Positions 16,801 through 38,849 of a DNA stretch of 64,000 nt are shown piece by piece. The notes beneath the pieces were generated by a model. It was not told the origin of the DNA. It saw only the letters and a program-made list of their open reading frames with translations, and did not search any database. The number at the start of each line of letters is the position of its first letter. Position 1 is the first letter of the stretch. The DNA is from a virus. Lineage: Duplodnaviria; Caudoviricetes. The stretch spans positions 1 to 64,000 of IMG/VR virus record IMGVR_UViG_3300048623_000062. One strand, written 5' to 3'. A program made the position numbers and the translations under genes.

Positions 16801-19632
16801 TCACGCCACGCCGAAGTTGAACACCATCGCCTTGCCGTCGCCGCCAGCAACCCCGTTTGATCCTCCGCCGTTACCGGCTCCGGCCGCGCCGCCGGCCACG
16901 CTGGTCGTCGCCGCAGTACCACCGCCCACCGCGTGGCAGATGTACCCACCGCCGCCGCCACCACCACCGCCAGCGCCGACCCCAGCGTTGCCACCGGCGC
17001 CGCCCGCGGCGGTCAGGAGCACGTTGGAGGGGTTGGTGACCGTGCGGGCCATGACCACAAGGTATCCACCGCCACCACCGCCACCGCCGCCGTTTGAGAC
17101 TCCGGTCACGCCAGCGCCCGAGGCGCCGCCTGCGCCGCCGGAGATCGAGGCGGTATTGGATGTGCCGAGACGCGCGACCTGGGCTGCGGGGAGGTTGTTG
17201 ATGCCACCGACCGAGACGGGGATCAGGTTGGTGATGCCGCCGCCGGTCGCGCCGGTATTGCCGCTGCTCGAGGCGCCCGAGTTGCCGCCGGTACCAGGGC
17301 GGAACGCCGTGGGGGCATTGTTGGTGTCCCCGCCGTTCTGGCCGTTGTTCTGGAGGCCATCGGAGCCGCCACCGCTGAAGCTGTTCAGCGAACCTTCGGT
17401 GCCAAGAAAGCCGACGCCCCCGGTGCTGCCGGATGCGTCGTTGCCCTTGCGCGAGATCGTGAAGGTGCCGCTTCCGGGACCAACGAGCGCGGTCCGACAG
17501 AAGATCCGGAATCCCGCCGAATCGAGCGTCACGCTTGAAGATCCGGTGAGCGTGTCATAGAACATGTCGCGCGTGAGCGTGGAGGCGGCGGTGACGCTGA
17601 CGTTGCCGTCGGAGCCATCTCCGAAGTACCCGCCGACGAGAGTCGGCGTTGCAGGTACGGACGCGGTGACCGTCGATCCGCTCATGCCGAACGAGACGCC
17701 GTTGGCGTTCGAGAACACCACCGTGCCGGCGGACTGGCTCGACCCGGCGGCGCTGAGCGCCACGCCACCGCCACCGGCGGCGGTGGCGGAGAACGACGCG
17801 GTCACGATATTGTTGCTCATCCCGAACGTGATGTTGTTCGAGTTCGAGAACACGACCGTGCCGGCCGTCGCCATCGTCGATCCGGCCGAGATCGCATTCG
17901 GCCCCACGCCCACCGCCGATGCGGTGATGGTCGAGCCCGACAGGCCGAACGAGACGCCGTTCGAGTTCGAGAACACCACGGTGCCAGCGCCGACCGACGC
18001 CGCACCGGCGCTGATCGCCGCCGGTCCAGTCGACTGGCTGTAGCTCGCGGTGACGATGGACGAGCCGGACATGCCGAACGAGACGCCGTTCGAGTTCGAG
18101 AACACGACGGTTCCCGCCGTCGCGGTCTGCGTGCCGGCCGCGATCGCCGCGGCGCTGGCGCCGGCCGCGCTGGCCGTGACGATCGATCCGTTCATGCCGA
18201 ACGAGACGTTGTTCGAATTCGAGAACACCACCGTGCCGCTGGTGAGCGTCGAGGCGCCCGCCTGGACGCCGATCGACGGCCGCACGGATGCCGTCAAGGT
18301 GGAGTTGCTGAGGCCCCAGGTGACGCCGTTCGAGTTGGCGTACGACACGGTGCCTGCGGACTGCGTGGCCGTCCCGGCAATGACAGCGTCGAGGCCGAGC
18401 TTGGAGGCGGTCACCGTCGATCCGCTGAGGCCGAACGAGACCCCGTTCGAGTTCGAGAACACGACCGTGCCAGCGCCGACCGAGGCGGTGCCGGCGCTGA
18501 TCGCCGCCGGTCCAGTCGACTGGCTGTAGCTCGCGGTGACGATGGACGAGCCGGACATGCCGAACGAGACGCCGTTCGAGTTCGAGAACACGACGGTTCC
18601 CGCCGTCGCGGTCTGCGTGCCGGCCGCGATCGCAGTGGGGCCGAGCCGCGAGGCGGTGAGGACGCCGTTCGACAACCCGAACGTGATGTTGTTGCTGTTC
18701 GAGATCGTGATCACGCCGGTGGTGACCAGCGACGCGCTCGCGCTGATGCCGATGCCCGACGCGGTGCCGCCGGCGGTCTGCGCGGTCGCGGTGATCACCG
18801 AGCCGGACATACCGAACGAGACGTTGTTCGAGTTCGAAAACACGATGGTGCCCGACGTTCCGGTCGACCCGGCCGCCGCGATCCCCGATGGACCGTCGTG
18901 GCTCGCGGTGACGATGGACGACCCCGACATCCCGAACGTGACGCCGTTCGAGTTCGAGAACACCACCGTGCCGGTCGTCGCAAGTTGAGACCCCGCGGAG
19001 ATCGCCACCGCGCCCGAGGTGCCAGCGTCCTCGGATGTCGTCGTGAAGCCGACGTTGACCAGCGGGGTGCCCGGGTTGTTCACGGGGACGCCCGAGCGCC
19101 GCACGCGCATGAACTTCGCGACGATGACGCCGCTCGCGAGGCGGTTCGACCCCTGGAACTGGAACGGCTGCGCCCAGTCGGTCGTGCCGTCGACCGAGAT
19201 CTCGACGATCAGCACGCCGCCGAAGGCCCCACCGACCTGCACCGTCTTGAACAGCCCGATGTCCGCGCTGACGTCCACGGACGCGCCCACGCCGTTCCCC
19301 GCGGGGACGGTCAGCGACGCGAACGTGGTGCCGGAGGTCGTGCCGCCGACGTTCACCGTGCTCGTGCCGCCGACGTTCACGTTGTAGCCGGAGACGCGCA
19401 CGCGCAGGAACCGCGCCGCGACGTTGATGGTCGTCGAGCCGCTGTTCTGGATGCTGGCCACCGCCTGCCATCCACCACCCTGGGCGGCGTCGTTGTTGAG
19501 CTCGATGGTGATGGTGCACAGCGCGGTGCCTACGACCGTGATCGTCTTGGTGGCCCCGAACGTCGAGACATCCGTGGCGGCGCCGACGCCGTTGCCGAGC
19601 GGTACTGTGAGAGAAACGAATTGATTCGCCAT
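16801..19632 (-). CDS. Long fibre/spike protein with 11 GTVVFSNSNGVSFG repeats and Gly-rich C-terminal domain
   Basis: Repeats counted in translation; YFGDGSDG..LTRDMFY Gly-rich domain seen in virion fibres. Confidence 0.75.
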   Translation of the reverse strand: MANQFVSLTVPLGNGVGAATDVSTFGATKTITVVGTALCTITIELNNDAAQGGGWQAVASIQNSGSTTINVAARFLRVRVSGYNVNVGGTSTVNVGGTTSGTTFASLTVPAGNGVGASVDVSADIGLFKTVQVGGAFGGVLIVEISVDGTTDWAQPFQFQGSNRLASGVIVAKFMRVRRSGVPVNNPGTPLVNVGFTTTSEDAGTSGAVAISAGSQLATTGTVVFSNSNGVTFGMSGSSIVTASHDGPSGIAAAGSTGTSGTIVFSNSNNVSFGMSGSVITATAQTAGGTASGIGISASASLVTTGVITISNSNNITFGLSNGVLTASRLGPTAIAAGTQTATAGTVVFSNSNGVSFGMSGSSIVTASYSQSTGPAAISAGTASVGAGTVVFSNSNGVSFGLSGSTVTASKLGLDAVIAGTATQSAGTVSYANSNGVTWGLSNSTLTASVRPSIGVQAGASTLTSGTVVFSNSNNVSFGMNGSIVTASAAGASAAAIAAGTQTATAGTVVFSNSNGVSFGMSGSSIVTASYSQSTGPAAISAGAASVGAGTVVFSNSNGVSFGLSGSTITASAVGVGPNAISAGSTMATAGTVVFSNSNNITFGMSNNIVTASFSATAAGGGGVALSAAGSSQSAGTVVFSNANGVSFGMSGSTVTASVPATPTLVGGYFGDGSDGNVSVTAASTLTRDMFYDTLTGSSSVTLDSAGFRIFCRTALVGPGSGTFTISRKGNDASGSTGGVGFLGTEGSLNSFSGGGSDGLQNNGQNGGDTNNAPTAFRPGTGGNSGASSSGNTGATGGGITNLIPVSVGGINNLPAAQVARLGTSNTASISGGAGGASGAGVTGVSNGGGGGGGGGYLVVMARTVTNPSNVLLTAAGGAGGNAGVGAGGGGGGGGGYICHAVGGGTAATTSVAGGAAGAGNGGGSNGVAGGDGKAMVFNFGVA
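17962..18632. repeat. Near-identical ~180 bp internal duplication in fibre gene (offset 486 bp)
   Basis: Copies at about 17962-18145 and 18449-18632. Confidence 0.8.
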
Positions 19633-19646
19633 AGATGAACTCCCTG

Positions 19647-20393
19647 TTAGACGCCGCGAACGAACCAGAACCCGGGCGCTGTCGAGTCGAAGGTGATGAT
19701 CACGCCGCCGCCCGCGGGGATGACGTAGTCACCAGGCCCGAAGAACTTACCACCCGCCGTGCCGGCGTCGTTCTGATTGCGGAGGGTGAGCGTCTGGCCG
19801 CCCGCGGTGCCGATGTTCTGGATAGCGATCTGCCGCCCGTCGGGATTGGGCGACGCGATGATGATGGAGTCGATGGTCGTCCCGGCCGCGTTCGGAAAGA
19901 CATCGAGTCGGGATGCGAGATTCAGCCCGGTAGCCTGACTCGGGCCGAGCTCGGCGTAGTTGGCGTTCGACGGGTTGAGCGTGGCGCTGTTGCCCAGGGT
20001 GAGCATCGTCTGCAGTACCGTGGCCGTGCCATTGATGACCGCGATCTGCGCGGTCTCGACGATCTGCCCGGCCGTGGTCACCACGTTGCCGTTGGTGTTG
20101 GTGACGAGCAGGTTGCCCGTCGATGCGAGGTTCGAGGTGATCTGCGTGCCGGAATTCTCGAGCAGCAGGTCAGCGCCATCGGTGACGAGGTGCATCCCAG
20201 CTCCGTCGTCGCAGGTCAGCGCCATCGTGTTCCCGGCGCCGGACGCGACCAGCGTGGTGCTCGACGCCTGCAGGAGCGCCGTCGGGACCTCGTCCGGGCC
20301 GTCCTTGCTGAGGATCAGACGCGCGGTCGAGTCGAGCACGCGCACCGTCACGGACTCGCCGGCCACTACACGACATGCAAACGGCTTCGCCAT
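19647..20393 (-). CDS. Putative virion spike/fibre-associated beta-rich protein
   Basis: T/N/G-rich; C-terminal DGRQIAIQNIG...VIITFD..FW domain. Confidence 0.6.
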   Translation of the reverse strand: MAKPFACRVVAGESVTVRVLDSTARLILSKDGPDEVPTALLQASSTTLVASGAGNTMALTCDDGAGMHLVTDGADLLLENSGTQITSNLASTGNLLVTNTNGNVVTTAGQIVETAQIAVINGTATVLQTMLTLGNSATLNPSNANYAELGPSQATGLNLASRLDVFPNAAGTTIDSIIIASPNPDGRQIAIQNIGTAGGQTLTLRNQNDAGTAGGKFFGPGDYVIPAGGGVIITFDSTAPGFWFVRGV

Positions 20394-20399
20394 GGATCC

Positions 20400-21281
20400 T
20401 CAGGTGGGGCTCGAGGTGAGGGGGGAGACGAAGAACGTGATGCGATCGCCGGCCTGGAGCTCGGCGGTCGCGATGCACACGAACTCCGTCGTGGTCTGCT
20501 GGTCTCGCGGGATGTCGAAGGCGACGATCGCCCCGACACTCTGACAGGTGCACGTCACGCCGTAGACCGCGGTCTGCGCGGTCGGCAGCGGGATCGTGAG
20601 CTCGGACAGGTCCGGCTCCTCGCCGGTGACGATGTAGTCGAACACGACCAATGTCGATGTGGTACCGCCCCCGCCGCCCTCGCCGAGCGTGGTCGCGCCG
20701 ACGTTGACGACGGGCAGCCCGGGGTTGATGGGCGGCACGCCCGCGCGCTTGACGCGCATGAGGCGCGCCACGACCACCGTCGATTCGGCGTTCGGCCGGT
20801 AGAACGCGAATGGCTGCGCCCACTCGTCGCCGTCGACCGATACCTCGACGATCAGCGACCCGCGGAACGGGCCGCCGACCTGCACCGTTTTGAACAGGCC
20901 CAGCAGCGCCGAGCTCACGTCGACCGAGTCACCGACGCCGTTGCTGGCCGGCACCGGAAGTTCAACGAACGTCGCCCCGGCATCGGTCGCGCCGACGTGC
21001 ACCGAGCTCGTGCCGCCGACCCGGGTGTTGTACGCGGACACGCTCGCGCGCATCCACCGCGCGGCCACGGAGACCGTGATCGATCCGCTGTTGTGGATGG
21101 TGGTCAGCGACTGCCACGACCCGAGCGTCGGATCGTCGCTGTTGTTGAACTCGATGTTGATCGCCGAGCGCGCGGTCCCGACGACCACGACGGTCTTCGT
21201 GCCGCCGAACGTCGACACGTCGACCGCGGTTCCGTTGCCGTTTCCGAGCGGAACCGGAAGCTCGGTGAAGACATTGCTCAT
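20400..21281 (-). CDS. Putative virion protein, paralog of fibre N-terminal module
   Basis: VPLGNGNGTAVDVSTFGGTKT vs VPLGNGVGAATDVSTFGATKT; two tandem domains shared. Confidence 0.7.
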   Translation of the reverse strand: MSNVFTELPVPLGNGNGTAVDVSTFGGTKTVVVVGTARSAINIEFNNSDDPTLGSWQSLTTIHNSGSITVSVAARWMRASVSAYNTRVGGTSSVHVGATDAGATFVELPVPASNGVGDSVDVSSALLGLFKTVQVGGPFRGSLIVEVSVDGDEWAQPFAFYRPNAESTVVVARLMRVKRAGVPPINPGLPVVNVGATTLGEGGGGGTTSTLVVFDYIVTGEEPDLSELTIPLPTAQTAVYGVTCTCQSVGAIVAFDIPRDQQTTTEFVCIATAELQAGDRITFFVSPLTSSPT

Positions 21282-21892
21282 ACGTGTCGCCTCCGCTGAT
21301 AGAGGAGCCACAGGAACACCGCGGCCCCGCCGACGACCAACACCGCACCGACGCCGATTCCGGCCAGCGCCAGCCAGCCGAGCGGGTCGTCGTTGTTCGT
21401 GAAGTTGCTCTCACCGGCCGCGAAGTCCGGCACCATCTTCCGACGCACCTCCCAGTGCGTGTGGTTCGCCGAGCTCGTCACGCCGACCTGCTGGCCGGCG
21501 GCGACTCGAGCGCCCGCAGGTGCATAGGCGGCGGTCAGCGGCTCGAGGTGCGCCAGGAGGTGGAACTTGCCGCTGTCGCCCTGGATGATGATGAGCCAGG
21601 GGCCATAGCCAACGAACGGCGCGCTGTTGCCATCGGCCGTTGCGACCACCGTCCCGGATTCCGGCGCCACCACGGTCGTCCCCGCGAAGCCCGCGACGTC
21701 CACGCCAGGATGACGGCATGGGTACAGCCCGACGCCGCACGACCCGTCCGCAGGCGTCGACCTGACCTCGAGGTAGCCGCCATGCGCGCCGACCTGGAGC
21801 GGGTAGATCGGCGGCTGCGGCCTACCTGGCGCCGGCGCGGCTGTCTCAACGGGGGTCGCCCCCAGCGCCTGCGCGGCGCGGGCGTAGGTCAC
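21278..21892 (-). CDS. M23 (LytM-like) endopeptidase with C-terminal membrane anchor
   Basis: HPGVD (HxxxD), APESGTVV, GYG, AHL, HTHWE (HxH); C-terminal TM plus RRR. Confidence 0.85.
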   Translation of the reverse strand: MTYARAAQALGATPVETAAPAPGRPQPPIYPLQVGAHGGYLEVRSTPADGSCGVGLYPCRHPGVDVAGFAGTTVVAPESGTVVATADGNSAPFVGYGPWLIIIQGDSGKFHLLAHLEPLTAAYAPAGARVAAGQQVGVTSSANHTHWEVRRKMVPDFAAGESNFTNNDDPLGWLALAGIGVGAVLVVGGAAVFLWLLYQRRRHV

Positions 21893-21895
21893 GTC

Positions 21896-23962
21896 TCACC
21901 ACCCGTCCCTTTCGTTGAGTACGAAGTGGAAGGTGGCACCGCGATCGCTGATCTCGGACTCCGCGACCTCGTCGGGGTCGAGCGCGCCGATGAGGTCCGC
22001 GCGAGCGAGCACGAGCGCCCCGGTGCGGTTGAGCTCGACGAGTTTCTTCTTGAACTGGTCGTAGGTCATGCCGCCCAGCCGTGGATCGTCCTGGACGCGG
22101 CGCCAGATCGCCGAGACGAACACCTTGCTCCCGAAGCGGCCGTAGCCGCGTCCGTTGCGCTGGTCCTCGTCGGTCTTCTTGACCGCGTCGATGACCGCGT
22201 CGGCGACGCCGCCCACCGGCGCCACGACCGTCGCGGGCGCTGGACGCTGGACCACATGCCGAGTCACCGCCGGGGCCGGCCGCGCCGGGGAGCGCCGCGC
22301 AGCCTGATTGGGTTCGTTGACCACGAAGTGGTACGTCGCGCCGCGATCGTGAATCTCCGACCCGATCACCTCATTGTGGTCCATCGCGGCAACGAGGTCC
22401 GCGCGCGCCATCGTGAGCAAACGCTGGCGATGCGCCTCGAGCAGACGCCGCTTGAACTCCTCGGCGGACATCGAGGCGAACCGAGGGTAGTCCCGGAGGT
22501 CTCTCCAGATCGCCGCGATGAACACCTTCCGATCGCCGAATCGGCCGCGCGCCTCCCCCTCGACCTCGCTCTCGTCGCCGATCCCATCGGCCGCCACGTT
22601 GACCGCCTGGGCGAACTCCTCGATGGGCATCTCGCGCCGCGCAGACCGCGCAGGAGCCGCAGCCGGCGCATGCCCGAGACGCTGGCGATATGCCGCGTAC
22701 TGCAGCCGCGAGTCGCCCTCGAAGATACCGCCGGCGAGTTGCTCGTCGGTCAGCTTCACGTGCCGGCCATCCGCGCTGTCGAGGCTCAGCACTTTCTGCC
22801 GGCGCATGTCGTTCACGCCTGCGGTGAACTCCTCGTGCGAATACTGCGGCATCGCCTTGCGCAGGTCGTAGAGCAGTACGTAGTTGTGACCCTTGTCGAG
22901 CCGACGGAACGCCGTCTCGAAGTCGCGGGCGAAGTTCGCCGCGAACGCGCCGGGGTCCGGCAACGGGTCTGGCTTCACATGCGGCCCCGGCGCGGCGAGC
23001 AACCGGTCGTACTCGGCTGCCTCGCGCTCGTGGCGTCTCATGTCTCGCAAATCCGCGCGCGTCGCCCCGGTCTTGGTCGGCCGGGGGCGAGGCGGCGGGC
23101 TCAGCACTGCGTCGGGCGGTCGCGACAGCTTGACCGTCCGCGAGGCCACGGGCGACGGCGCACGCGCGGGCGAGCGAGGCGACTTCGGCTTCGACATCCG
23201 ATCCGTGTCGCGCGCGGGCCGCTTGGCGAAGATCACCTCCTTGAGGTCCTTGGCCAGCGCGCCGCCCTTGGCGAGGTATCGGTAGTGCTCGAACTCCGCC
23301 GCGGAGTTTCCGGTAAAGAACACAAACCGGTCGACGAGGTCCGGGCGATTCTCCTCCACCCAGTGAAACAGGTCGATGCCGCTCTTGTCGCCGAGCACAT
23401 CCACGTCGCTCACGATGAGGCCGACCATGTGGACCTTGATATTCGCGATCGCCGCGTCCACGTTGTCCGAGACGATGACCGGCGTGCCCTTGAAGATCCG
23501 CCCGAGCATCTTCGTGGTGCCGGCCTGCAGGACCGGATCGTCCTCGAGCAGGATGATGCGATCTTGGCTGTTCGCGGCGTGGACGTCTTGCTTGGCCGGG
23601 TTCTGCACCTCGGCGCCACCATCCCAGGTCAACTCGAGTTGGCCATCGCGGGACTCGAGCTCGGCCGTGAACGTCGGCACGCGGAGCCCGGCGCCATACA
23701 CCACCGAGTCCCACTCGCCACCGGCGCCCATCGCGTAGGACACCAGGATATCGCCGACGTCCGACGGACGGAGGTCCGACGCGGATCGGTGAAGTTGATC
23801 GGCGATGCCCACGAGGCCGGTGTGGTTCACCTCCTCGTAGAGGTGCGCGAGATCCTCGGCCGCCTTGCGCGCTGGCGCCGGCGCCTTGCCGCGGGTCTGC
23901 GATACGCTCTCCCAGAGCGCCTCGCTCATCTCATTGATCAGGCCGCCCCGAGACCACGTCAT
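21896..23962 (-). CDS. Multidomain protein: receiver-like domain plus repeated winged-helix-like domains
   Basis: IILLEDD...LIVSDV...FFTG...LAKG receiver motifs; two strong RFG.KVF..AIW...ARADL...SEI.DRGAT repeats and one weaker. Confidence 0.7.
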   Translation of the reverse strand: MTWSRGGLINEMSEALWESVSQTRGKAPAPARKAAEDLAHLYEEVNHTGLVGIADQLHRSASDLRPSDVGDILVSYAMGAGGEWDSVVYGAGLRVPTFTAELESRDGQLELTWDGGAEVQNPAKQDVHAANSQDRIILLEDDPVLQAGTTKMLGRIFKGTPVIVSDNVDAAIANIKVHMVGLIVSDVDVLGDKSGIDLFHWVEENRPDLVDRFVFFTGNSAAEFEHYRYLAKGGALAKDLKEVIFAKRPARDTDRMSKPKSPRSPARAPSPVASRTVKLSRPPDAVLSPPPRPRPTKTGATRADLRDMRRHEREAAEYDRLLAAPGPHVKPDPLPDPGAFAANFARDFETAFRRLDKGHNYVLLYDLRKAMPQYSHEEFTAGVNDMRRQKVLSLDSADGRHVKLTDEQLAGGIFEGDSRLQYAAYRQRLGHAPAAAPARSARREMPIEEFAQAVNVAADGIGDESEVEGEARGRFGDRKVFIAAIWRDLRDYPRFASMSAEEFKRRLLEAHRQRLLTMARADLVAAMDHNEVIGSEIHDRGATYHFVVNEPNQAARRSPARPAPAVTRHVVQRPAPATVVAPVGGVADAVIDAVKKTDEDQRNGRGYGRFGSKVFVSAIWRRVQDDPRLGGMTYDQFKKKLVELNRTGALVLARADLIGALDPDEVAESEISDRGATFHFVLNERDGW

Positions 23963-23974
23963 CGCTTTCGCCCT

Positions 23975-24499
23975 CTAGGCGTCCATCGCCCGGTTGTTGG
24001 TGATTCCGATGCGCAGCCGGCACAGCGACACGCCGCTGTGCAGCGCGCCCGCCACGTGCCTGTCGTCGCCCATCTCCCACGCGCATTCGAACGGCTCGAT
24101 CGAGAGACGCCCGATACCGCCGGCCGCCATCAAATCCGGTGACTGCGTCGCCAGGATCGTCGTGCGCATCGGATTGACCGCCGACGGGTCGAAGTCGATC
24201 GCCTTGCGATCCCCCGGAATCCGCGACTGCTTGCGACAGCGCGGACAGATGATGTGCGCGACCAGCGGCTCGCCGGGGATGGCGTAGACATCGACCGTCA
24301 AGAACTGGTCGCCGTACACCACCACCACCTCCTGCTTGCCTGCCGTCAGGCTGGTCGTCATCGAGATCCCGGTCTCCATGTCTCCGGCAATGCGCACGAC
24401 CTCGCGCTCCTTGCCACTGGCAAGCGAACCCGGCTTCACGCCCATCATGTCTTGCACGCGCGGGTCGCGGAGGTCGATGGAGAGCGAGTTCTTGGTCAT
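23975..24499 (-). CDS. Zn-binding hypothetical protein
   Basis: CPRC, distal C...C. Confidence 0.6.
   Translation of the reverse strand: MTKNSLSIDLRDPRVQDMMGVKPGSLASGKEREVVRIAGDMETGISMTTSLTAGKQEVVVVYGDQFLTVDVYAIPGEPLVAHIICPRCRKQSRIPGDRKAIDFDPSAVNPMRTTILATQSPDLMAAGGIGRLSIEPFECAWEMGDDRHVAGALHSGVSLCRLRIGITNNRAMDA
24411..24423. repeat. Dispersed palindrome copy
   Basis: cTTGCCACTGGCAAg; inside CDS (LASGK frame). Confidence 0.9.
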
Positions 24500-24509
24500 G
24501 GAGCCGAGT

Positions 24510-24773: not shown

Positions 24774-24786
24774 GGTGGGTGTCTCC

Positions 24787-25188
24787 TTAGCCGCGCTTCT
24801 TGAGGACGAGCGCGAGCATGATGATACCGCCACCGATGGCGATCGCGGTAGTAGTAGACAGGCCGGTCTGGGGCTGCGGGGCGATGACGGTCGGCTGCTG
24901 GCCGGGGAGGAAGCGGAGGATGGAGTCCAGGATGCCGCCGCCCGCACTCATTCCCGCCGGGTGCGCCGGATCGGGATCCACGGCGCCCGGCGCGCGGTAC
25001 GTCGACCCGTCGGAGTTGAACGTCGTCATGCCGCCGTCCGGGGTCGCGCAGTAGTTGCCCGGCTTCCGGTAACCATCGCCGATGGGAATCGTCGAGCACT
25101 GGTCATCCGACGAGAACCCCCCGAACGCCCCGAGGACGCCCCCGAGCAGGGAGCGCTTGTTCTTGACGAGGACGCGCTTCATGTACAT
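24787..25188 (-). CDS. Virion membrane protein
   Basis: ATG overlaps upstream TGA; C-terminal TM plus KKR. Confidence 0.7.
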   Translation of the reverse strand: MYMKRVLVKNKRSLLGGVLGAFGGFSSDDQCSTIPIGDGYRKPGNYCATPDGGMTTFNSDGSTYRAPGAVDPDPAHPAGMSAGGGILDSILRFLPGQQPTVIAPQPQTGLSTTTAIAIGGGIIMLALVLKKRG

Positions 25189-25529
25189 CAGATCTTCCCC
25201 TTCTTCTTCGACAGGAGATAGTAAGCGAGGCCGCCGCCGGCCGCGAGGACGACGTAGGGCACGTAGTTGGTCTTTGGCTCGGGCTGCGCACCTTGCGCGC
25301 CGCCGCTCACGGCGCTCGAGAGCGCATCCTTGAGCCAGTCGAGCATGCTCGGGCCGCACGCGGCGCCAACGCGCTTGAACGGATGGTCGGCCGGAAACTG
25401 ATCGCACGGGATCCGCTTGGGGCCGGTGATGTCGATGGGCGGGTTGCTCGAGTTCGGGTCGAAGATCGTCGGATCGACCTCGTGAGGAGCGGTGACCGGA
25501 TCGCCCATGCCGCGTCGGTGGTAACTCAT
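25188..25529 (-). CDS. Virion membrane protein, MSY...GMGD leader
   Basis: C-terminal TM YVVLAAGGGLAYYLL-KKK. Confidence 0.7.
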   Translation of the reverse strand: MSYHRRGMGDPVTAPHEVDPTIFDPNSSNPPIDITGPKRIPCDQFPADHPFKRVGAACGPSMLDWLKDALSSAVSGGAQGAQPEPKTNYVPYVVLAAGGGLAYYLLSKKKGKI

Positions 25530-26275
25530 GAACTCTTCCGATCCTTGAGTAGGAGGTAGGCCCCCAGGACGGCGACACCGCCGACCAGGAGCACCGTGGT
25601 CATCGGGTATCCTGCGATCATGACGCCGTTCGCGTCTGGGATCTCCGGGCTGGGCGGAATGACGATCGGCCCATTGGGACCCATGACGACTCGGCCGCCG
25701 TCTGGAGTCGGGACCGCACCTCCTCCGCCACCACCACCGCTGCTTGGTACCGGGGGCTGCACGACAAGACCAGGACCAGGTGGTTGCGTCGGCGACGTGG
25801 GGGATGTTGGCGTCGTGGGTGACGTCGGGTTCTGGGTCGTCGCACCACGATGATCACGCACGATCGCGCCGGGGATCGGGGCCTTGGTTCCCGGCACGAA
25901 CCCGGGCGGGATCGCTGCGGGTGGCGGCGGCGGCGAATTCGGACTGTGATACGCGCCGGGCTGCAGCGTTCGCACGCCTCGCATGCCGGGGAGTGGAACC
26001 GGGTTTGCCGGAGGGGTTGGTGTTGGCGTACGGGTTGGAACCGGCGCTGGGCGACGGTCCGGAGCGCGGCTTCCGCCCGGCGATCGCCGATCTGGCGTGT
26101 CGCGATCGATGGCCCCGAGAGCCCCCGATGCGACCGCCGCCATGAGGCGATCTCGTGCGCGGGTCGCGCGCCCGACCTGAACCCGGCGGTAGCGGGTCGA
26201 CGATGACACCATGTCGGATGCGGCGATCGCCCCCACGCCGCGCGTCGCGCGGTCGCTATCTCTCGTGTACCCCAT
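25526..26275 (-). CDS. Pro-rich virion membrane protein, MGY...GVGA leader
   Basis: Pro/Thr-rich stalk; C-terminal TM. Confidence 0.7.
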   Translation of the reverse strand: MGYTRDSDRATRGVGAIAASDMVSSSTRYRRVQVGRATRARDRLMAAVASGALGAIDRDTPDRRSPGGSRAPDRRPAPVPTRTPTPTPPANPVPLPGMRGVRTLQPGAYHSPNSPPPPPAAIPPGFVPGTKAPIPGAIVRDHRGATTQNPTSPTTPTSPTSPTQPPGPGLVVQPPVPSSGGGGGGGAVPTPDGGRVVMGPNGPIVIPPSPEIPDANGVMIAGYPMTTVLLVGGVAVLGAYLLLKDRKSS

Positions 26276-26565
26276 TACCGTCGCCCTCGGCCGTGGTGCC
26301 CATGGCCGCCCCCATGGCCACCGCCCCGCCCTCTACCAGCACGATAGGACCCCCACGACGGCCCCCACGGCATGCCCCACCCAGCGGGCGGATCGTAGTC
26401 CATGTCCGCCGCCTCCACGTTCACCACGACCTGCGGGGCCGCAAACGGCGGCGACTGCGTGCCAGCCGACCCGGCCGTGAGCGCAGAGGTGGCCGCAGAC
26501 TTCTTGGACAGGTAGTAGAGCGCCACGGCGGCGCCACCCAGGATGAGCACGGTGGAAGTCTTCAT
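26275..26565 (-). CDS. Membrane protein with N-terminal TM and Gly/His/Arg tail
   Basis: MKTSTVLILGGAAVALYYLSKK. Confidence 0.65.
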   Translation of the reverse strand: MKTSTVLILGGAAVALYYLSKKSAATSALTAGSAGTQSPPFAAPQVVVNVEAADMDYDPPAGWGMPWGPSWGSYRAGRGRGGGHGGGHGHHGRGRR

Positions 26566-26879
26566 CGGTTCTTTCCGAGCTCGTACCCGATCAGCGCCGG
26601 CACACCGAACAGCGCGGCGAGCGCGAGTGGGTACACCCATTTGTTCTGCTGCGCGAACGCGTACCCGCGTAGCGCTGGCATCAGGCTTCGCAGTCCGGCG
26701 CCGCCTGCCAGGTTCGGCGGCGTCGTGCCGCACGAGATCACCGGCTCACCGCGCTCGACGCTACGCAGTTGCCCAGCGATGCACACCGCCTCATTGAAGT
26801 ACGGGTCGTTGACGACGTTCGCCGCCGCCGAGATGGTGTCGCCGATGCCGCCCAGAGATGTTCTGCGTTGATACGTCAT
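26562..26879 (-). CDS. Virion membrane protein, MTY...GIGD leader
   Basis: C-terminal TM. Confidence 0.7.
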   Translation of the reverse strand: MTYQRRTSLGGIGDTISAAANVVNDPYFNEAVCIAGQLRSVERGEPVISCGTTPPNLAGGAGLRSLMPALRGYAFAQQNKWVYPLALAALFGVPALIGYELGKNR

Positions 26880-26892
26880 TTGGTGCTGGTGT

Positions 26893-27012
26893 GAAGTCGG
26901 CTGAGGTCGCCCGCCCGCGCTATCGCATCCTTCCCGGGATTTTGGTGACGACGCGAAGACAGAAACGTCGCCCTCATTGCGCTCGCACCGGCGAGCGACC
27001 TCAGCCGACTTC
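26893..27012. repeat. 18-bp perfect inverted repeat enclosing further hairpins (intergenic)
   Basis: GAAGTCGGCTGAGGTCGC 26893-26910 and GCGACCTCAGCCGACTTC 26995-27012. Confidence 0.85.
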
Positions 27013-27014
27013 GA

Positions 27015-27464: not shown

Positions 27465-27468
27465 GGGC

Positions 27469-28228: not shown

Positions 28229-28804
28229 CTACTGGACGTCGCGGGTCTGGAGACCGTCGAGCATGAACATGATGTTCTTCACGTCGTCGGTCGCGCCGCT
28301 GTTGAGTTGGTCCAGCGCGCTCGTGGTGCCGATCGCGAAGAAGTCCGCCTGGGCGGCGAAGTTCTGGCGAACCGGCACGATGATCGGGCGGGCCAGCTTC
28401 AGGATCGACGCCTGCTCGGGCGTGCCGTTCGAGAACACCGACTGCGAGGAGTCGAAGCCCCACACGCCACCACCGGCCGGGAAGTACCAGCACGGCGCCT
28501 GGAACATCGGCTTGGTGCCGACGGTCAGGGTCCAGAACAACTGGCTGGTGACGTTCAGGTAGTTGTCGCGGCGGTTGGTGCCATCGAAGTACTCGAAGCA
28601 CCGGATCGCCAGGATCACGTACGTCTGATCCGACGCCAACTGGCCGGCGGTCTGGAGGTTGGTCAGCGCGAGGTTGCCGATGTTCGCGTTGCCGAACAGC
28701 TTCGTCGAGTTGACGATCGGCGTGGTGGGGTCACCCGTGGTGCGGATGAGGGTGTCCCAGAGGGGCTGGTGGAGCCGCTCGCGGTATCCATGGAGACGAG
28801 GCAT
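28229..28804 (-). CDS. Putative single jelly-roll major capsid protein 1
   Basis: 191 aa; HQPLWDT...LF..TNLQTAGQL...YVILAIR...MLDGLQTRDVQ pattern; strong AAGGA RBS, structured leader. Confidence 0.6.
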   Translation of the reverse strand: MPRLHGYRERLHQPLWDTLIRTTGDPTTPIVNSTKLFGNANIGNLALTNLQTAGQLASDQTYVILAIRCFEYFDGTNRRDNYLNVTSQLFWTLTVGTKPMFQAPCWYFPAGGGVWGFDSSQSVFSNGTPEQASILKLARPIIVPVRQNFAAQADFFAIGTTSALDQLNSGATDDVKNIMFMLDGLQTRDVQ

Positions 28805-30240: not shown

Positions 30241-30260
30241 CGAGGGTGGACATACTTAAG

Positions 30261-31555: not shown

Positions 31556-31557
31556 GA

Positions 31558-32283
31558 TCAGTCCTTGGCGAGGTACCGCTCCCACAGCAAGTACCCGCCC
31601 ACGACAAGCGCGGTGTACTTCAGGACTCGGTATAGGTCTGGGAGGTCGTTGGCCACCAGGACCGCGGTCTCTCCGATCGCCAGCACCGCGCCAATCAGCA
31701 GTTTTGCCGTCGACCATGCCTTGTCGAACGCGCGCTGAAAGGTGGCCAGGCTCCCGATCCACCACGGCGCGATGCACCCAACGACCGCGGCGGTTACCAT
31801 GCTCGACGAGCACGTCGCGAGCGAATCGACCACCCAGCGCTTGAGGCCCTGGGCGTTGACGAGTCGGATGCCGTTCTGATCGGCGTTGTTAGCCGCAGCC
31901 AGATAGCCGAGCGACCGCTCGCCCACGCGCGCCAGGTCGTTGACCGCGCGCATGATGCTGTCCTGCGATGCATTCGGCTCCGCGCGCGCCTGGTCGATCG
32001 CCACCTGCACGGTCCTCACCGTATCCATGACGTTGGCGACCTGCGTCCGAATCTCGTCGGGCGTATAGAACCCTGTCGGATTCCAGTTCGCCGACAAGTC
32101 GTTCACCTTGGCATCCATCGGAGCAAAGGTGGCATTCGCAAGCGCGATGCATTGCGCCTCGTCGCTGGGCCGTGTCGTCGGCAAGCCGAGATCGGCGTTG
32201 AGGTTGTTCATGAAGTCACCCCACCAGTCGCCGAGACTGGTGGGCTTGCGTAGACGCGTGCGCACTCGTCTGGTGTACGTCAT
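31558..32283 (-). CDS. Helical virion membrane protein, MTY...SLGD leader
   Basis: C-terminal TM; GGAG RBS before ATG at 32283. Confidence 0.7.
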   Translation of the reverse strand: MTYTRRVRTRLRKPTSLGDWWGDFMNNLNADLGLPTTRPSDEAQCIALANATFAPMDAKVNDLSANWNPTGFYTPDEIRTQVANVMDTVRTVQVAIDQARAEPNASQDSIMRAVNDLARVGERSLGYLAAANNADQNGIRLVNAQGLKRWVVDSLATCSSSMVTAAVVGCIAPWWIGSLATFQRAFDKAWSTAKLLIGAVLAIGETAVLVANDLPDLYRVLKYTALVVGGYLLWERYLAKD

Positions 32284-32591
32284 CGGAGAATTCTCCATGC
32301 AAGATATCCGAGCGCCGCGTACATCAGTAGCGATCGCGACGACAGCGCTTCGTCAGACCCGTCGAGGCTCGCGACACGGCCTTGCGGCAGTTCGCCGCTG
32401 CCTACCTTCGTCGCTCCCACGGGGAGTTTCCACGACGCACGCGACGGGGACACGCCAAAGTCGCCCTCGAGCCCCGGCCCCACAGGCTCGGGCGTCGCCT
32501 TCGACGGCGACCCGGCGTGAGTGCCGCCGGGTCCGGGCGCCTCGTAGTAGTCGTAGGCGCGCCGCGTGTAGTCGTAGACCGAGTACCGCAT
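32280..32591 (-). CDS. Virion membrane protein
   Basis: MRYSVYDY...; C-terminal TM. Confidence 0.65.
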   Translation of the reverse strand: MRYSVYDYTRRAYDYYEAPGPGGTHAGSPSKATPEPVGPGLEGDFGVSPSRASWKLPVGATKVGSGELPQGRVASLDGSDEALSSRSLLMYAALGYLAWRILR

Positions 32592-32596
32592 GGGGC

Positions 32597-32944: not shown

Positions 32945-33228
32945 GGGCAACCCTTCTTCTGCCCGAAGCCCTGGGCGATGGAAATTGGGACTGCGGCCAC
33001 TGGCACGAGCCGACCAGCGAGCCCGTAGATGAGCGCCCAGATGATCGACCCCGTGCGACGGTACCCGTGGTAGGTGAGCGCGATCGCGGATGCCGTCTTG
33101 ACCGGCTCGCTGGTCACGGCGCGGCGCAGGCTGAACGGTTCTGGGGCGGCGTCGGCTCCGAGCCCGTTGATCCCGACCGGCGCGACCACGATGCCGCCCC
33201 CACGAGTCCTGTATCGCTGATAGCGCAT
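32941..33228 (-). CDS. Virion membrane protein, MRY...GLGA leader
   Basis: GGGAGG RBS; hydrophobic C-half. Confidence 0.65.
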   Translation of the reverse strand: MRYQRYRTRGGGIVVAPVGINGLGADAAPEPFSLRRAVTSEPVKTASAIALTYHGYRRTGSIIWALIYGLAGRLVPVAAVPISIAQGFGQKKGCP

Positions 33229-33860
33229 TACTTCCTCCCTCGCTTGCGCTTGTTCATGAGCAGGTAGCCGATGCCACCAGCCACGCCGAGCAGGGCGAGT
33301 TTTTCGATGCCGGAGAGCGCAGCCAGCGACGCCATGACGCCGGCGTCCGGTGCCACGATCGTCTTGCCGCTCTTGGTCTGGATGGTGGGCACCGAGACCG
33401 CGAGCGGCCCCGAGACCGTCGCCGGCACGCCCAGCGTATCGGCCATCGCCCGCACCTGGGCGGCCAGGACATCGACGTCGGGCGCGACGCCCATGCAGGT
33501 CGACGGGTCGCCCATCACCGAGCCGGCGGACGCCGCCTGCACGCGGCGAAACAGCGCCAGCGTCGCGGGGCCGACCGAGCCGTCCACGACGATCTTGCCG
33601 AACCCCTTGGCCTGGGCGACGCGGTTGAGTTGCCGCTGAAACTCCTGCACCACCTTGAGAGCGGGGAAGTTCATCGGCTTGCACACGCCGTTCACCGTCA
33701 CGAAGTCCGCGGACGACGTGGTCGATCCGCCGTTGGCGGTCTGGTTCACGTTGTCCGACGGATCCGGCTCGACGGCCGAGAACGGTCCCAGGGCCTTGAG
33801 CAGGTCCGCGAGGCCGCCGTTGTCGTCGCCGACCGCGGAGCGATGTGCGAGGTACGTCAT
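33228..33860 (-). CDS. Peptidoglycan-binding-like domain with C-terminal TM, MTY...AVGD leader
   Basis: VQEFQRQLN...VDGSVGPAT motif. Confidence 0.7.
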   Translation of the reverse strand: MTYLAHRSAVGDDNGGLADLLKALGPFSAVEPDPSDNVNQTANGGSTTSSADFVTVNGVCKPMNFPALKVVQEFQRQLNRVAQAKGFGKIVVDGSVGPATLALFRRVQAASAGSVMGDPSTCMGVAPDVDVLAAQVRAMADTLGVPATVSGPLAVSVPTIQTKSGKTIVAPDAGVMASLAALSGIEKLALLGVAGGIGYLLMNKRKRGRK

Positions 33861-34330
33861 CGAGACCTCCGCTTCGAGAGCATGCAGTAGAGGATGTAGG
33901 CCCCGATCCCGTAGGTGACGATGCCGCCCGGAACTTCCGGCAGAAAGTCGAGCGGACCATCGACCGCAACCGGGAACGTCATCGGCTGGTAGGCCATCGC
34001 GACGGTCGGCTGGATACGGAAGCCCTTGCGCTCCGCATCGATCAGCGCCTTCACGTTGGCACCCCAGGACATTCGCTCCCAGTTCGGGCCAGCAACCTGC
34101 TCTAGAGCACGCTCAGTCGCCTCATCGAGCCGCCCGCTCACGAGCACGTCCATCGCCCCCAGCTTCCAGAGCGCTCGCTGGATCTGCTGGACGAGGATGA
34201 TGATCTGGCTGGCCTTGGGGTCCGTGGTGGCCGGAGCGACCATCATGTACGGGATGATGCCCGTAGCGTTGAAGTTCCCGACGCCGATGGCGGTCAGGAG
34301 CTCGCGCGATTCCATCGATGTCTCGCTCAT
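33857..34330 (-). CDS. Peptidoglycan-binding-like domain with C-terminal TM
   Basis: VQQIQRALWKLG...VSGRLDEATERAL. Confidence 0.65.
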   Translation of the reverse strand: MSETSMESRELLTAIGVGNFNATGIIPYMMVAPATTDPKASQIIILVQQIQRALWKLGAMDVLVSGRLDEATERALEQVAGPNWERMSWGANVKALIDAERKGFRIQPTVAMAYQPMTFPVAVDGPLDFLPEVPGGIVTYGIGAYILYCMLSKRRSR

Positions 34331-36054: not shown

Positions 36055-36065
36055 TTCGTTGTCCT

Positions 36066-36683
36066 TTAGGCCGCCACCGGCCAGGTCGCCCCGGCCTTGA
36101 CGCGAGAGAGCATCTGCGGGGTCTTCTCTGCCGCCACGGGGTCGAGCACGATGTGCGTGCCGGTTCGCGGCTCGAGGGCGCGCGTGAACACGTGGGAGTA
36201 TTGCGGTTGCCCCTGGAAGAACATCCGCTGAAACGCGACGGTGGCGAAGTCAGCTCGACCGCCAACCGCGATCACCGCAGCTGCCAGCCAGCACGCCATG
36301 TCGTCGCAGTCGAGCGACGGCCGGTGACCGGCCATGATCTGCTTGCTGATCAGGTGGGGGGCGCGCACGAGCTCGGTGCGGCGCGGGTCGCGCATGTACC
36401 GCGTGCGCTGCAGCAGGAACTGGTACAGCGCCAGATACTCGGACGTGTAGTCTTTGCTGTCGAGCCACTCGCAAACGATCTCGGCGAGTTGCCGCGTCTC
36501 GAAGTGGTCCGCGTCGCCCAGCACGGCGCGCCGCATGACGTCGATGGTCTGCGGCGCGCCTGCGTACCCGATGCGCGACGTCGGCGCCTGGTCCGGGAGC
36601 CAGAATAGACGCGCCCCCCCATAGCCCATCCCCGACTGGGGGACGAGCGGGGCGAGGCGGGCGCTATTCGGGTTGGTGGGCAA
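36066..36683 (-). CDS. Transglutaminase-like cysteine protease (putative maturation protease)
   Basis: LDCDDM (Cys), YSHVF (His), VLDP (Asp) triad; RYMRDP..TELV upstream motif. Confidence 0.8.
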   Translation of the reverse strand: MPTNPNSARLAPLVPQSGMGYGGARLFWLPDQAPTSRIGYAGAPQTIDVMRRAVLGDADHFETRQLAEIVCEWLDSKDYTSEYLALYQFLLQRTRYMRDPRRTELVRAPHLISKQIMAGHRPSLDCDDMACWLAAAVIAVGGRADFATVAFQRMFFQGQPQYSHVFTRALEPRTGTHIVLDPVAAEKTPQMLSRVKAGATWPVAA

Positions 36684-36759
36684 GCACAGCGTTCACCCGG
36701 GAAGATGAGGGCTGGCAGGAAGACGTCGTGGTCCCAGCGGCGAGTCGGCTGGGGTCGGG

Positions 36760-38430
36760 TTACTCGATGAGGGCGGCCCCGACCTTGCGCAGCCAGTTCT
36801 TGCCTGACTGCGATGAGAGGGGCGATTCACCCGGCAACTGTGCCACCTTCTGCATGAATAGGTCAATACCGGCCATCTCGGGCGAGTGATGCTTGCGCAG
36901 CCATGCCAGAATGTCGGCCGGGATGGCCGAGCGCCCGCTCTGCGCCACGATCTCCGGGTCCGCGCCGCCGCCGAATGCGTTCTCGAGGAACGTGATGAGC
37001 CGCTTGAGCTCGGCCGGGTCGACCACGGGGATCTCGATGGCCTCACCGTTCACGCCCGGCACGAGTTTGGGCTTCCGGGTGACCGGGCGGAGCGTGGTTC
37101 CATCCGTCGTCTTGTATCGCTGGCCAGTGGCCTCATTGACGATGATGCGCGGACGCGCGGGCGCCTGGGCCTGCTGCGGAGCCGCCGGCGCGGGCGCCGC
37201 CCCCTTGAACACCGAGGTCACTGCCCCGATATTCTCCGGGGTGAGCGCCCCGAAGATCTTGCCGATCGTCGAGGCATCCTCTTGATCATCGTCGCCTGCG
37301 ATGACCTCTTTGAGGTTCTTGATATCCTTCATCTGCTCGAGGAGCGGCTTTTCTTTCTTCTCGCGGAGTTCCTTCACCTCGATTCTAAGCTCGGCGTTGT
37401 CGCGCTCGAGGCGCCGCACGTCCGCGTTGAGCACGCTGACCTGGACGTCGTTGGTCGCCTTCATAGAGGCGATCGCCACCTCGTGCGACTGGCGTAGCGC
37501 GGTGATCTCGCGCTCGTAGCTCTGCTTGGTGTTCATCATCTCGCGCTCGTGCGCTCGCTCGGCCGCCTCCCTCGCGCGATCGTGGCGATCCTCGGCGCGC
37601 GCGATGTCCGCGTGCGCTGCCTCCTTGAGTTGGCGCACCTCTGATTCGTGCTGCGTGCGTAGCGCGAGCACCTGGCCGTTATTGCCGTCGATGGCGTTGG
37701 TGAGGATGCGGTCCAGCACCGGGTTCTCTGGTGGCTTCGTGTGGCGCATCTCCGATAGTTCGCGGCGCATGTCGGCGATCTCGCGCTCGCGCGAGCGCAC
37801 CGTCTCCTGCATCTGCTCGAACATCATCTGAACGCTTGGGTCGATGCCACGCGGCTCGTGGTCGTCCTTGCCGTCCTTGCGGTCGAGCAACTCCTTCATC
37901 GTATCCATCGCGATCTTCGCCATCTGCGGCGACTCGCTGTGAGAGGCGGTCCCCGGGGGTGCTATGCCCGTCTTGCCAGGGATCCGTGGCTCACCGGCGA
38001 TCTTCATCGTCCGATGGGCCTTGTACTCGAACGACCCCTTGGCGTTGGGCAGCATGATGCGGAGGTTGTACTTGCCACCGCCGTGCTCGTTGCGGAGGAA
38101 TTCCTCGTCGAAACGCTCCTCGTACGTGTGGAGGTATCCCTCGATGGACACCATCTGACCCGTCGCCGGGTCGCGTACTTCCCGGGGGCTCTCTCGGCGA
38201 ACGACGATGCGCATGGCGCCGCCCTTGCCGATCTCGCTGAGCCAGTCATGGAGTGACTTCTCGTCCTCGGTCTTGATGGCCTGCATGACCGGGGATAGCC
38301 GCTCGGGCGCAACCGCCGCCGGCACCGGCGCGGCCTTCCCCTTGGTGCGCTTCGCCTCCGGCGGCGACTCATCGACACCAGCTTTCAGATCATCCTCGGT
38401 CATGTCGAGCGCGGCGACTTCCTTCATCAC
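36760..38430 (-). CDS. Large coiled-coil protein of morphogenesis block
   Basis: EHGGGKYNLRI N-domain followed by long E/R-rich coiled coil. Confidence 0.7.
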   Translation of the reverse strand: MMKEVAALDMTEDDLKAGVDESPPEAKRTKGKAAPVPAAVAPERLSPVMQAIKTEDEKSLHDWLSEIGKGGAMRIVVRRESPREVRDPATGQMVSIEGYLHTYEERFDEEFLRNEHGGGKYNLRIMLPNAKGSFEYKAHRTMKIAGEPRIPGKTGIAPPGTASHSESPQMAKIAMDTMKELLDRKDGKDDHEPRGIDPSVQMMFEQMQETVRSREREIADMRRELSEMRHTKPPENPVLDRILTNAIDGNNGQVLALRTQHESEVRQLKEAAHADIARAEDRHDRAREAAERAHEREMMNTKQSYEREITALRQSHEVAIASMKATNDVQVSVLNADVRRLERDNAELRIEVKELREKKEKPLLEQMKDIKNLKEVIAGDDDQEDASTIGKIFGALTPENIGAVTSVFKGAAPAPAAPQQAQAPARPRIIVNEATGQRYKTTDGTTLRPVTRKPKLVPGVNGEAIEIPVVDPAELKRLITFLENAFGGGADPEIVAQSGRSAIPADILAWLRKHHSPEMAGIDLFMQKVAQLPGESPLSSQSGKNWLRKVGAALIE

Positions 38431-38849
38431 TTCGACTCCTTGTCGTCCTCGGACTCTTGGTCTTCGTCCTCGTCCTCATCGGGAACGGTGATCTCGCCGA
38501 GCACGTTGCTGCCGTCCTCGCACAACTCGCGGAACTTGGAGATCGCCTCGAGCACCTTCGGTTCGCCGGTCGCGCGCTTCTCGAGCTCGGTCGCCAGCAC
38601 GAGGCCAGTGGTGATGATGCTCGCGAACGTGTCAGCTGTGTCCTCGTGGAGCGTGTCCGGCGCGCCATCCATGAGGTCGGCCACGGCTTCGTCGACCTCG
38701 CCGAACTCCTCGACGAGCGACTCGAGCCACGGCAGCAGATCGCTCGAGAAGAACGACACGACGTCATTCGCCGTGGTCAACTTCCCGGCGAAGCCCTTGG
38801 CTTTGCCGACGATCTCCTTCAGGTCACTCTTCAGTTGTACGGTGCTCAT
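38427..38849 (-). CDS. Acidic helical hypothetical protein
   Basis: ORF track; GGGAG RBS. Confidence 0.65.
   Translation of the reverse strand: MSTVQLKSDLKEIVGKAKGFAGKLTTANDVVSFFSSDLLPWLESLVEEFGEVDEAVADLMDGAPDTLHEDTADTFASIITTGLVLATELEKRATGEPKVLEAISKFRELCEDGSNVLGEITVPDEDEDEDQESEDDKESK

Follow-up and report, generated by a model that had tools for sequence, protein, structure and literature searches.

A 64,000-nucleotide stretch of viral DNA (hereafter the window), comprising bases 1-64000 of the 81,143-bp IMG/VR record IMGVR_UViG_3300048623_000062, carries at positions 16801-38849 a module that probably encodes the virion of a tailless ~81-kb virus, complete and circularly mapping, with a jelly-roll capsid and a membrane, belonging to a large uncultured group with genomes of 79-86 kb. 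The host proposed as part of this explanation is a GC-rich, peptidoglycan-bearing bacterium. At the center of the module, two adjacent genes encode small proteins predicted to be jelly rolls. A sequence-only reading of the window had recognized no terminase, portal, HK97 capsid, or tail gene, and this absence now extends to the whole 81-kb genome and to four complete relatives (G001, G002, G004, and G005). The same reading had placed the virus as a large relative of Halopanivirales-type viruses, a placement that comparison did not support. Gene content, predicted folds, conservation, and hallmark-gene absence were determined directly; new here are a link to the cultured phage SSIP-1, a third jelly-roll gene, loop-insertion variants, and absence tests that do not depend on gene calls.

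Two Adjacent Genes Encode Predicted Jelly-Roll Proteins

Genes were called by third-position GC content (GC3) across the whole record. The two neighboring genes of ~190-210 aa on which the sequence-only reading rested have a strong coding signal (GC3 0.93 for the 191-aa gene and 0.89 for the 207-aa gene), and both products are predicted to be beta-rich:

28229-28804, minus strand: candidate major capsid protein, single jelly roll, 191 aa, AlphaFold2 (AF2) model
27469-28092, minus strand: second jelly-roll protein, 207 aa, candidate second capsid or vertex protein

Neither protein matched Pfam or PHROGs, and one homolog matched DUF7592 below the cut-off. AF2 was supplied with a 62-row alignment for the 191-aa protein (A2) and a 36-row alignment for the 207-aa protein (A3). 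The 191-aa model reached a mean predicted local distance difference test score (pLDDT) of 88 and a predicted template modeling score of 0.81, and the 207-aa model (pLDDT 80.5) comprised an N-terminal helix (residues 5-36, ~32 residues) followed by a beta sandwich with strands between residues 53 and 204. When both models were searched against representative solved chains, the best match of each was 6oj0_T, a capsid protein of the internal-membrane virus SPV1, with which the two proteins share 4-11% identity in the alignments. Z scores, with root-mean-square deviation (rmsd) and aligned residues for the best match, were:

SPV1 6oj0_T: 191-aa protein, Z 8.5, rmsd 3.9, 135 aligned; 207-aa protein, Z 6.9, rmsd 3.6, 132 aligned
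HCIV-1: 191-aa protein, Z 6.4; 207-aa protein, Z 6.4
HHIV-2: 191-aa protein, Z 6.3; 207-aa protein, Z 6.0
P23-77 VP17: 191-aa protein, Z 6.5; 207-aa protein, Z 4.7
P23-77 VP16: 191-aa protein, Z 5.2; 207-aa protein, absent from the list

Foldseek lists likewise held mostly jelly-roll capsid proteins, though the matches were weak. Among viral models, the 191-aa protein matched I1ZBH9 best (211 aa, TM-score 0.55, E 6.6e-4), an unnamed protein that we suspect may be SSIP-1 gp46 (also 211 aa). On the strength of these models, both adjacent proteins are predicted to be jelly rolls, as the sequence-only reading had supposed.

No homology was found between the 191-aa and 207-aa families by hhalign, which rules out the pair as a duplicated gene. 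Prediction of a complex between the two proteins scored 0.00 and speaks neither for nor against a heterodimer. Both genes had been credited with structured leaders; of the two, only the 125-nt leader of the 191-aa gene folds better than its shuffles (z -2.47, 2/200; z -1.25 for the 136-nt leader of the 207-aa gene).

The Candidate Capsid Family Is Large and Includes a Paralog in the Same Genome

Searches recovered 668 homologs of the 191-aa protein, forming 308 clusters at 50% identity, and 508 homologs of the 207-aa protein. The gene for the 191-aa protein is the most conserved of the group, its product being 77-100% identical in G001, G002, and G005. The sequence-only reading had described a paired module; two adjacent jelly rolls are indeed present, but they belong to a set of three genes, the third lying outside the module:

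53865-54575, plus strand: paralog of the 191-aa protein, 236 aa, a candidate either for the vertex (penton) or for a minor variant of the capsid protein

The 236-aa protein matched A2 over its full length (hhalign probability 99%, E 5e-18) and the 191-aa protein across the N-terminal arm (BLASTP E 3e-15), and the paralogy is traceable in the DNA as a 62-nt repeat. Kept in G001, G002, and G005, the paralog carries an inserted segment that is probably helical; its assignment as a vertex protein is a guess. Elsewhere in the 191-aa family, four members (P0287, P0298, P0305, and P0320) bear loop insertions of 100-250 residues and retain the strands at both termini. The insertions are helical except for one that is beta-solenoid-like and rich in Gly and Thr, and by analogy they may resemble the behavior of capsid proteins with surface towers. 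Conservation, family size, a full-length paralog, and loop-insertion variants together amount to capsid-like behavior of the 191-aa family.

On two short contigs of distant relatives, a gene of 217-224 aa follows the capsid homolog; in L014 the following gene has 153 aa. Profile comparison of the next genes of L034 and L014 with the second jelly-roll gene was insignificant. The Logan contigs L014 and L015 (43.8 and 18.7 kb, 58% GC) encode a capsid homolog with ~31% identity over the tblastn match, the former being a dark contig close to SSIP-1 in size (44 kb). An open reading frame (ORF) of 206 aa there weakly matches SSIP-1 gp34 (E 0.0016), and no P-loop was found within ±10 kb of the capsid gene.

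Directly upstream of the 236-aa paralog, a 211-aa protein (53220-53855, plus strand) has a J-domain-like end that includes HPD, the motif typical of such domains (a sub-threshold match to Pfam DnaJ, E 7.7e-4), and may be a virus-encoded co-chaperone.

The Record Represents an Essentially Whole Genome with Many Relatives

The record, rated 94% complete by CheckV, is colinear with the complete 86.4-kb relative G001, in which its two ends map ~1.4 kb apart; it is therefore essentially whole and circularly permuted. Its last 9 bases (genome 81135-81143) are identical to its first 9 (window 1-9, CTTGCAAGC), which fits a circular molecule opened at an arbitrary point. The relatives G001, G002, G004, and G005 measure 79-86 kb, and all have direct terminal repeats and are rated 100% complete. 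GC content was 64-69%. Many such records, of the same narrow 79-86 kb size and with terminal repeats, are present in IMG/VR. A core block at 24.0-39.6 kb is syntenic in 4/4 genomes, the fiber set at 16.8-21.9 kb is variable, and a second conserved block at 50.4-59 kb holds the 236-aa capsid paralog. No paper describing such a virus group was found in the literature, and tblastn of the 191-aa protein and of the distant relative P0346 against 50,697 GenBank phages returned no match.

Hallmark Genes of Tailed Phages and Packaging ATPases Were Not Found

Among 111 ORFs, none matched a terminase, portal, HK97 capsid, or tail family in Pfam or PHROGs, nor did these surveys yield conjugation genes. 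Six-frame searches of five genomes with Terminase_6N, Phage_capsid, Phage_portal (a single Pfam portal family), and FtsK_SpoIIIE were empty, and positive controls were found. AAA_25 gave a single 12-bit match in the five genomes, in G004 and below the cut-off; controls for the FtsK_SpoIIIE and AAA_25 searches were found in 14/14 cases. An FtsK-HerA packaging ATPase, which the sequence-only reading suggested seeking in the flanks, was thus recovered in 0/5 genomes, and the terminase, portal, and HK97 capsid genes that it had named as contrary evidence occur neither in the flanks nor in the complete relatives. No Walker A motif was present in any credible reading frame of four genomes, and the ±10-kb neighborhoods of eight relatives held no credible Walker A in long protein-coding frames. 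Similarly, the ±10-kb neighborhoods of close and distant relatives showed no precomputed Pfam match to a tailed-phage hallmark. A shape search of the ESM Atlas with the 191-aa model returned unnamed viral clusters only.

The Remaining Module Encodes a Hyper-Basic Protein, Membrane Proteins, and Fibers

Around the capsid pair, the segment encodes the following proteins, several of them with a transmembrane (TM) helix:

38427-38849, minus strand: acidic protein at the head of the module, 140 aa, net charge -24
36760-38430, minus strand: candidate scaffold or size-determining protein, 556 aa, long charged coiled-coil center
36066-36683, minus strand: transglutaminase-like (Cys-His) protein, candidate maturation protease or virion enzyme, 205 aa
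34327-36054, minus strand: Pro/Gly-rich protein with C-terminal TM helix and KKKKKS tail, 575 aa; unnamed viral clusters only in the ESM Atlas
33228-34330, minus strand: two tail-anchored proteins, 157 and 210 aa, with C-terminal TM helices and basic tails
31558-32298, minus strand: two-TM-helix protein with MTYTRR leader, 246 aa
28930-30240, minus strand: hyper-basic protein, candidate DNA-condensing core protein, 436 aa, net charge +97
25188-27464, minus strand: four small tail-anchored membrane proteins, 149, 105, 249, and 113 aa, kept in G002 and G005
21896-24499, minus strand: 688-aa and 174-aa proteins, the latter core and the former partly conserved
21278-21892, minus strand: M23 peptidase with C-terminal TM anchor (TM 179-197); Peptidase_M23 E 1.5e-12 and PHROG peptidase matches
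16801-21311, minus strand: variable receptor-binding set of the 943-aa repeat fiber and 248-aa and 303-aa proteins
16801-19632, minus strand: repeat fiber, 943 aa, ~12 GTVVFSNSNGVSFG-type repeats

The hyper-basic protein noted earlier from sequence lies directly upstream of the capsid gene and is 43-81% identical in relatives. Its N-terminal half is rich in Arg and Lys, a segment rich in Gly and Ala is moderately hydrophobic, and the EEELG tail is acidic; its composition and position suggest a DNA-condensing core protein. The 205-aa protein, 77% identical in G002 and G005, has a homolog among the virion proteins of SSIP-1, gp34 (E 5e-8 by phmmer and 2e-11 by BLASTP). A DCD...H motif supplying the catalytic Cys and His is aligned between the two, and gp34 matches Pfam Transglut_core. 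This homology is the only sequence link to a cultured virus. Against solved structures, phmmer found no match for the 205-, 303-, or 556-aa proteins. The 556-aa protein (39-43% identical in G002 and G005) also lacked Pfam, PHROG, and PDB matches and returned only unnamed viral clusters from the ESM Atlas; a scaffold or size-determining role is a guess.

Proteins ending in a TM helix and a short Lys/Arg tail are characteristic of the module. The pattern had been counted in over a dozen proteins, slightly too many: ~10 lie in the module (starting at 21278, 25188, 25526, 26562, 27015, 32280, 33228, 33857, and 34327, with the two-TM protein at 31558) and two or three elsewhere (12446, 54593). Many membrane proteins, including each of the four small ones, start with M-[TSG]-Y-x-R, and G[DA] follows within ~20 residues, a pattern judged by eye. 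The 157- and 210-aa proteins matched PG_binding_1 (E 0.008) and PG_binding_3 (E 0.13), both below the cut-off. The sequence-only reading had also reported fibers and membrane-anchored wall hydrolases, and both are represented, the former by the 943-aa protein and the latter by the M23 peptidase together with a weaker, transglycosylase-like candidate outside the module. The 943- and 303-aa proteins have a common 200-aa N-terminal module (62% identity over 203 residues, E 5e-72), which looks like an exchangeable plug-in for one virion site. The receptor-binding set is absent from G002 and partial in G005. Enzymes of entry, exit, and integration map to the remainder of the window:

54593-55321, plus strand: probable lytic-transglycosylase-like protein, 242 aa, C-terminal TM (217-235), LLRRA tail; weak PHROG transglycosylase match (E 0.0045), 63-67% identical in G002 and G005
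57683-58597, minus strand: endolysin, GH25 muramidase with PG_binding_1
59858-61054, minus strand: tyrosine integrase, Phage_integrase E 3e-14

A Proposed Model of the Virion and Its Assembly

From these data we infer how the virion is built, that it has a membrane, and how packaging and maturation proceed. The particle would be tailless and icosahedral, with a shell of small single-jelly-roll proteins made up chiefly of the 191-aa protein, and with the 207-aa protein and 236-aa paralog in second-capsomer or vertex positions. Beneath the shell would lie a lipid membrane bearing ~10 tail-anchored virus proteins, and fibers and spikes with the common N-terminal module would plug in at the vertices. 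The membrane-anchored M23 and transglycosylase-like enzymes may breach the cell wall on entry, and the GH25 endolysin may serve exit. Since no terminase, FtsK-HerA ATPase, or P-loop protein was found, we propose a route other than the pumping of DNA into a shell assembled beforehand. The +97 protein would condense the genome, after which membrane and capsid would enclose the nucleoprotein, a route that would parallel the nucleoprotein core of SPV1. During maturation, the 205-aa Cys-His protein may trim the M-x-Y...G[DA] leaders of membrane proteins.

A broader proposition, toward which we are inclined to be skeptical, is that these genomes represent a widespread bacterial virus lineage that keeps ~80 kb of double-stranded DNA (dsDNA) in a jelly-roll capsid with a membrane without any NTPase motor. 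In such a lineage, DNA condensation would fall to a protamine-like protein associated with the membrane, perhaps aided by a ParB-motif protein and dispersed palindromes, and membrane and shell would assemble around the condensed DNA. If true, this would be the strategy of the archaeal virus SPV1 repeated in bacteria with a genome four times as large, and the shared transglutaminase-like protein would tie SSIP-1 into a new high-rank jelly-roll group.

Weighing the Evidence Against Alternative Explanations

Several points weigh against a tailless, jelly-roll, membrane-containing virus. All of the evidence is computational. In the structural searches, only the SPV1 match reaches ~Z 8, the level at which the aligner indicates more than a common beta-sandwich, and the same lists contain at Z 5-6 both non-capsid jelly rolls (PHM and nucleoplasmin) and cement or decoration proteins of tailed phages. 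With Z values middling and non-capsid proteins so close, the fold is supported, but the capsid role is inferred. At the sequence level, profile A2 gave only chance matches among PDB chains, and comparison of SSIP-1 gp45 and gp46 with the 191-aa family was not significant (gp46 was the top A2 match, E 0.19; hhalign against gp45/gp46 gave E 0.029 in the N-terminal arm). Large conserved proteins of 556, 575, 372, and 266 aa, known by sequence only, could conceal a divergent HK97 fold or portal, and the automatic labels on the matching ESM Atlas clusters read 'Uroviricota'. The motif scan is not decisive by itself, because some terminases have deviant Walker A motifs. To our knowledge, motor-less packaging of 80 kb is without bacterial precedent.

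An unlikely alternative is another architecture, for example an enveloped or pleomorphic particle in which the jelly rolls belong to a nucleocapsid layer, a matrix, or spikes and not to an outer icosahedral shell over an internal membrane. The many membrane proteins, the basic DNA-condensing protein, and the missing motor would equally suit budding or wrapping, and the heterodimer prediction supplied no evidence of a capsomer. Yet both jelly rolls best match capsid proteins of icosahedral internal-membrane viruses, the combination of GH25 and M23 enzymes suggests lysis over budding, and the sole cultured-virus link, SSIP-1, is icosahedral with an internal membrane (PMC6260650, PMC6356626).

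Quite unlikely, too, is a highly divergent member of the Caudoviricetes whose HK97 capsid, portal, and terminase evade profiles and whose jelly rolls are decoration, cement, or fiber parts. Cement or decoration jelly rolls of KHP40, Pam1, and GP4 do appear in the fold lists at Z 5-6, and the Atlas cluster labels point the same way. Genome size, integrase, endolysin, a beta-helix protein, and fibers with a shared anchor are common in tailed phages, and several large core proteins are known by sequence only. However, neither the profile survey of the 111 ORFs nor the controlled six-frame searches of five genomes produced a hallmark gene, no P-loop occurs in credible frames, and there is no tape-measure-like gene. 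The 191-aa protein is moreover the most conserved of the group and has a full-length paralog, which is unusual for a decoration protein, and the module is crowded with tail-anchored membrane proteins. A plasmid-like or integrative element that uses its jelly-roll and membrane proteins in a cell-surface or secretion role is highly improbable: a 13-bp palindrome in eight dispersed copies, a 489-aa protein with a GxRRxRA ParB-type motif, an integrase, and the lack of recognized replication or packaging genes would fit it, but the many IMG/VR records are of tight 79-86 kb size with terminal repeats, an endolysin, fibers, and a homolog of an SSIP-1 virion protein are present, and conjugation genes are missing from the Pfam and PHROG surveys.

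Host and Lifestyle

The integrase suggests a temperate lifestyle, which fits the sequence-only reading, and the GH25, M23, and peptidoglycan-binding signals indicate a bacterial host. Two GTDB matches were virus-length contigs of metagenome-assembled genomes (MAGs) labeled Peribacteria and Myxococcales; the MAG labels obtained (Myxococcales, Peribacteria, and Nitrobacter) all stem from virus-length or short contigs. Of 401 genomes sampled from the phylum to which the Myxococcales MAG belongs, four carry the capsid family, and in the two examined it lies again on virus-length contigs. A host in the Myxococcota, as raised by the sequence-only reading, is possible. Searches for a tRNA and for an att site were negative.

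One of these four matches, a distant relative in a MAG of that phylum (L039-L043; G288:C16, 83,222 bp, 74% GC), has only the capsid, an integrase, and DUF5131 in common with the genome described here. Its 221-aa capsid homolog is followed by a 233-aa gene, and a giant gene of 2626 aa lies ~3.8 kb downstream; the giant SSIP-1 structural gene gp43 (2319 aa) is also near the capsid genes, but upstream. An EF-Tu-like GHVGAGKT motif near 80.2 kb in G288:C16 may be a marker of host DNA.

Other Genes and Repeats

The 13-bp palindrome TTGCCA(C/G)TGGCAA occurs in 8 copies versus zero expected (4702, 24411, 35511, 39829, 45413, 50310, 55831, and 60294). One copy is located just upstream of the 489-aa gene (50356-51825), whose product contains AIDGQRRTRA, resembling the ParB GxRRxRA box, and was not recognized by Pfam. 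A sugar-modification cluster (6293-16732, minus strand) adjoins the fiber genes and includes an NAD-dependent epimerase/dehydratase (13875-15140) and weak, below-cut-off matches to group-1 glycosyltransferases (10102-11301). An NTP-transferase-like Pfam match and a PHROG glycosyltransferase match also appeared somewhere among the 111 ORFs surveyed. The cluster is partly common to G005 and absent from G002, and its role could be virion glycosylation or conversion of the host surface. Beyond the window, a 653-aa protein (L003:12069-14030, minus strand; genome 75069-77030) weakly matches a Cas12f1-like TNB domain (E 1.7e-4, below the cut-off) and is kept in G001, G002, and G005 at 36-95% identity.

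Implications and Comparison with Known Viruses

The genomes of tailless, membrane-containing viruses known from bacteria span 10-44 kb, and of those that have a jelly-roll capsid and are well studied, none is known to lack a packaging ATPase. If the interpretation as a tailless virus is correct, a common environmental group of 79-86 kb that has three jelly-roll genes and lacks P-loop proteins would extend this range about twofold, challenge the assumption that large dsDNA bacterial viruses require a packaging motor, and give the orphan phage SSIP-1 its first relatives. The group would then appear to be a kind of tailless bacterial virus that is widespread, unusually large, and so far undescribed. 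Automatic pipelines label such genomes as tailed phages, and hence the non-tailed share of soil and sediment viromes may be underestimated. The capsid family, with its 308 clusters at 50% identity, is a ready marker for finding such viruses.

Among known groups, the Caudoviricetes differ in their large terminase, portal, and HK97-fold major capsid protein (MCP), all unmatched here by profile searches, though a very divergent terminase is possible. With the Halopanivirales/Helvetiavirae (P23-77, IN93, SH1, HHIV-2, and HCIV-1) the genome shares small single-jelly-roll genes side by side, a likeness at the fold level only (Z 4.7-6.5 for P23-77 VP17/VP16, HCIV-1, and HHIV-2), and possibly an internal membrane, for which the ~10 tail-anchored module proteins are indirect evidence. 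In that order, an FtsK-HerA (A32-like) packaging ATPase is conserved beside the MCP pair; here it is missing, as is any P-loop. There is also no sequence homology, the genome exceeds those of the order three- to fivefold, no relation between the two adjacent proteins is detectable, and the best fold match is SPV1 rather than P23-77 or SH1. Membership in the Halopanivirales fails because the packaging ATPase is absent and sequence homology is lacking.

SSIP-1 is a tailless, icosahedral phage with an internal membrane, a T=49 capsid, and two MCP types (PMC6356626, PMC6260650, PMC5332951). Both viruses have a bacterial host, a circular map, and an integrase, and in both a transglutaminase-like gene lies upstream of the capsid genes; gp45 and gp46 are adjacent structural genes encoding ~210 aa each in the SSIP-1 record. 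The genome described here is ~2x larger, however, and has no counterpart of the P-loop ATPase found among the SSIP-1 structural proteins (gp40, AAA_25, E 5e-11). Nor is gp44, just upstream of the SSIP-1 capsid genes and the only gene there checked, basic.

The archaeal virus SPV1 (Portogloboviridae, whose jelly-roll capsid proteins are of the VP4/VP10 type) provides the best solved fold match for both jelly-roll proteins. SPV1 is not known to encode a packaging ATPase, which the absence of one here would match. SPV1 infects a hyperthermophile of the Sulfolobales and has a circular genome of ~20 kb, compared with 81 kb here; no sequence similarity was detected (A2 profile versus PDB), and the present genome encodes bacterial wall hydrolases. 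A nucleoprotein core lies beneath the lipid layer of SPV1 (PMC8459092). A DNA-condensing basic protein is plausible in both viruses, and among known viruses SPV1 is the closest working analogue.

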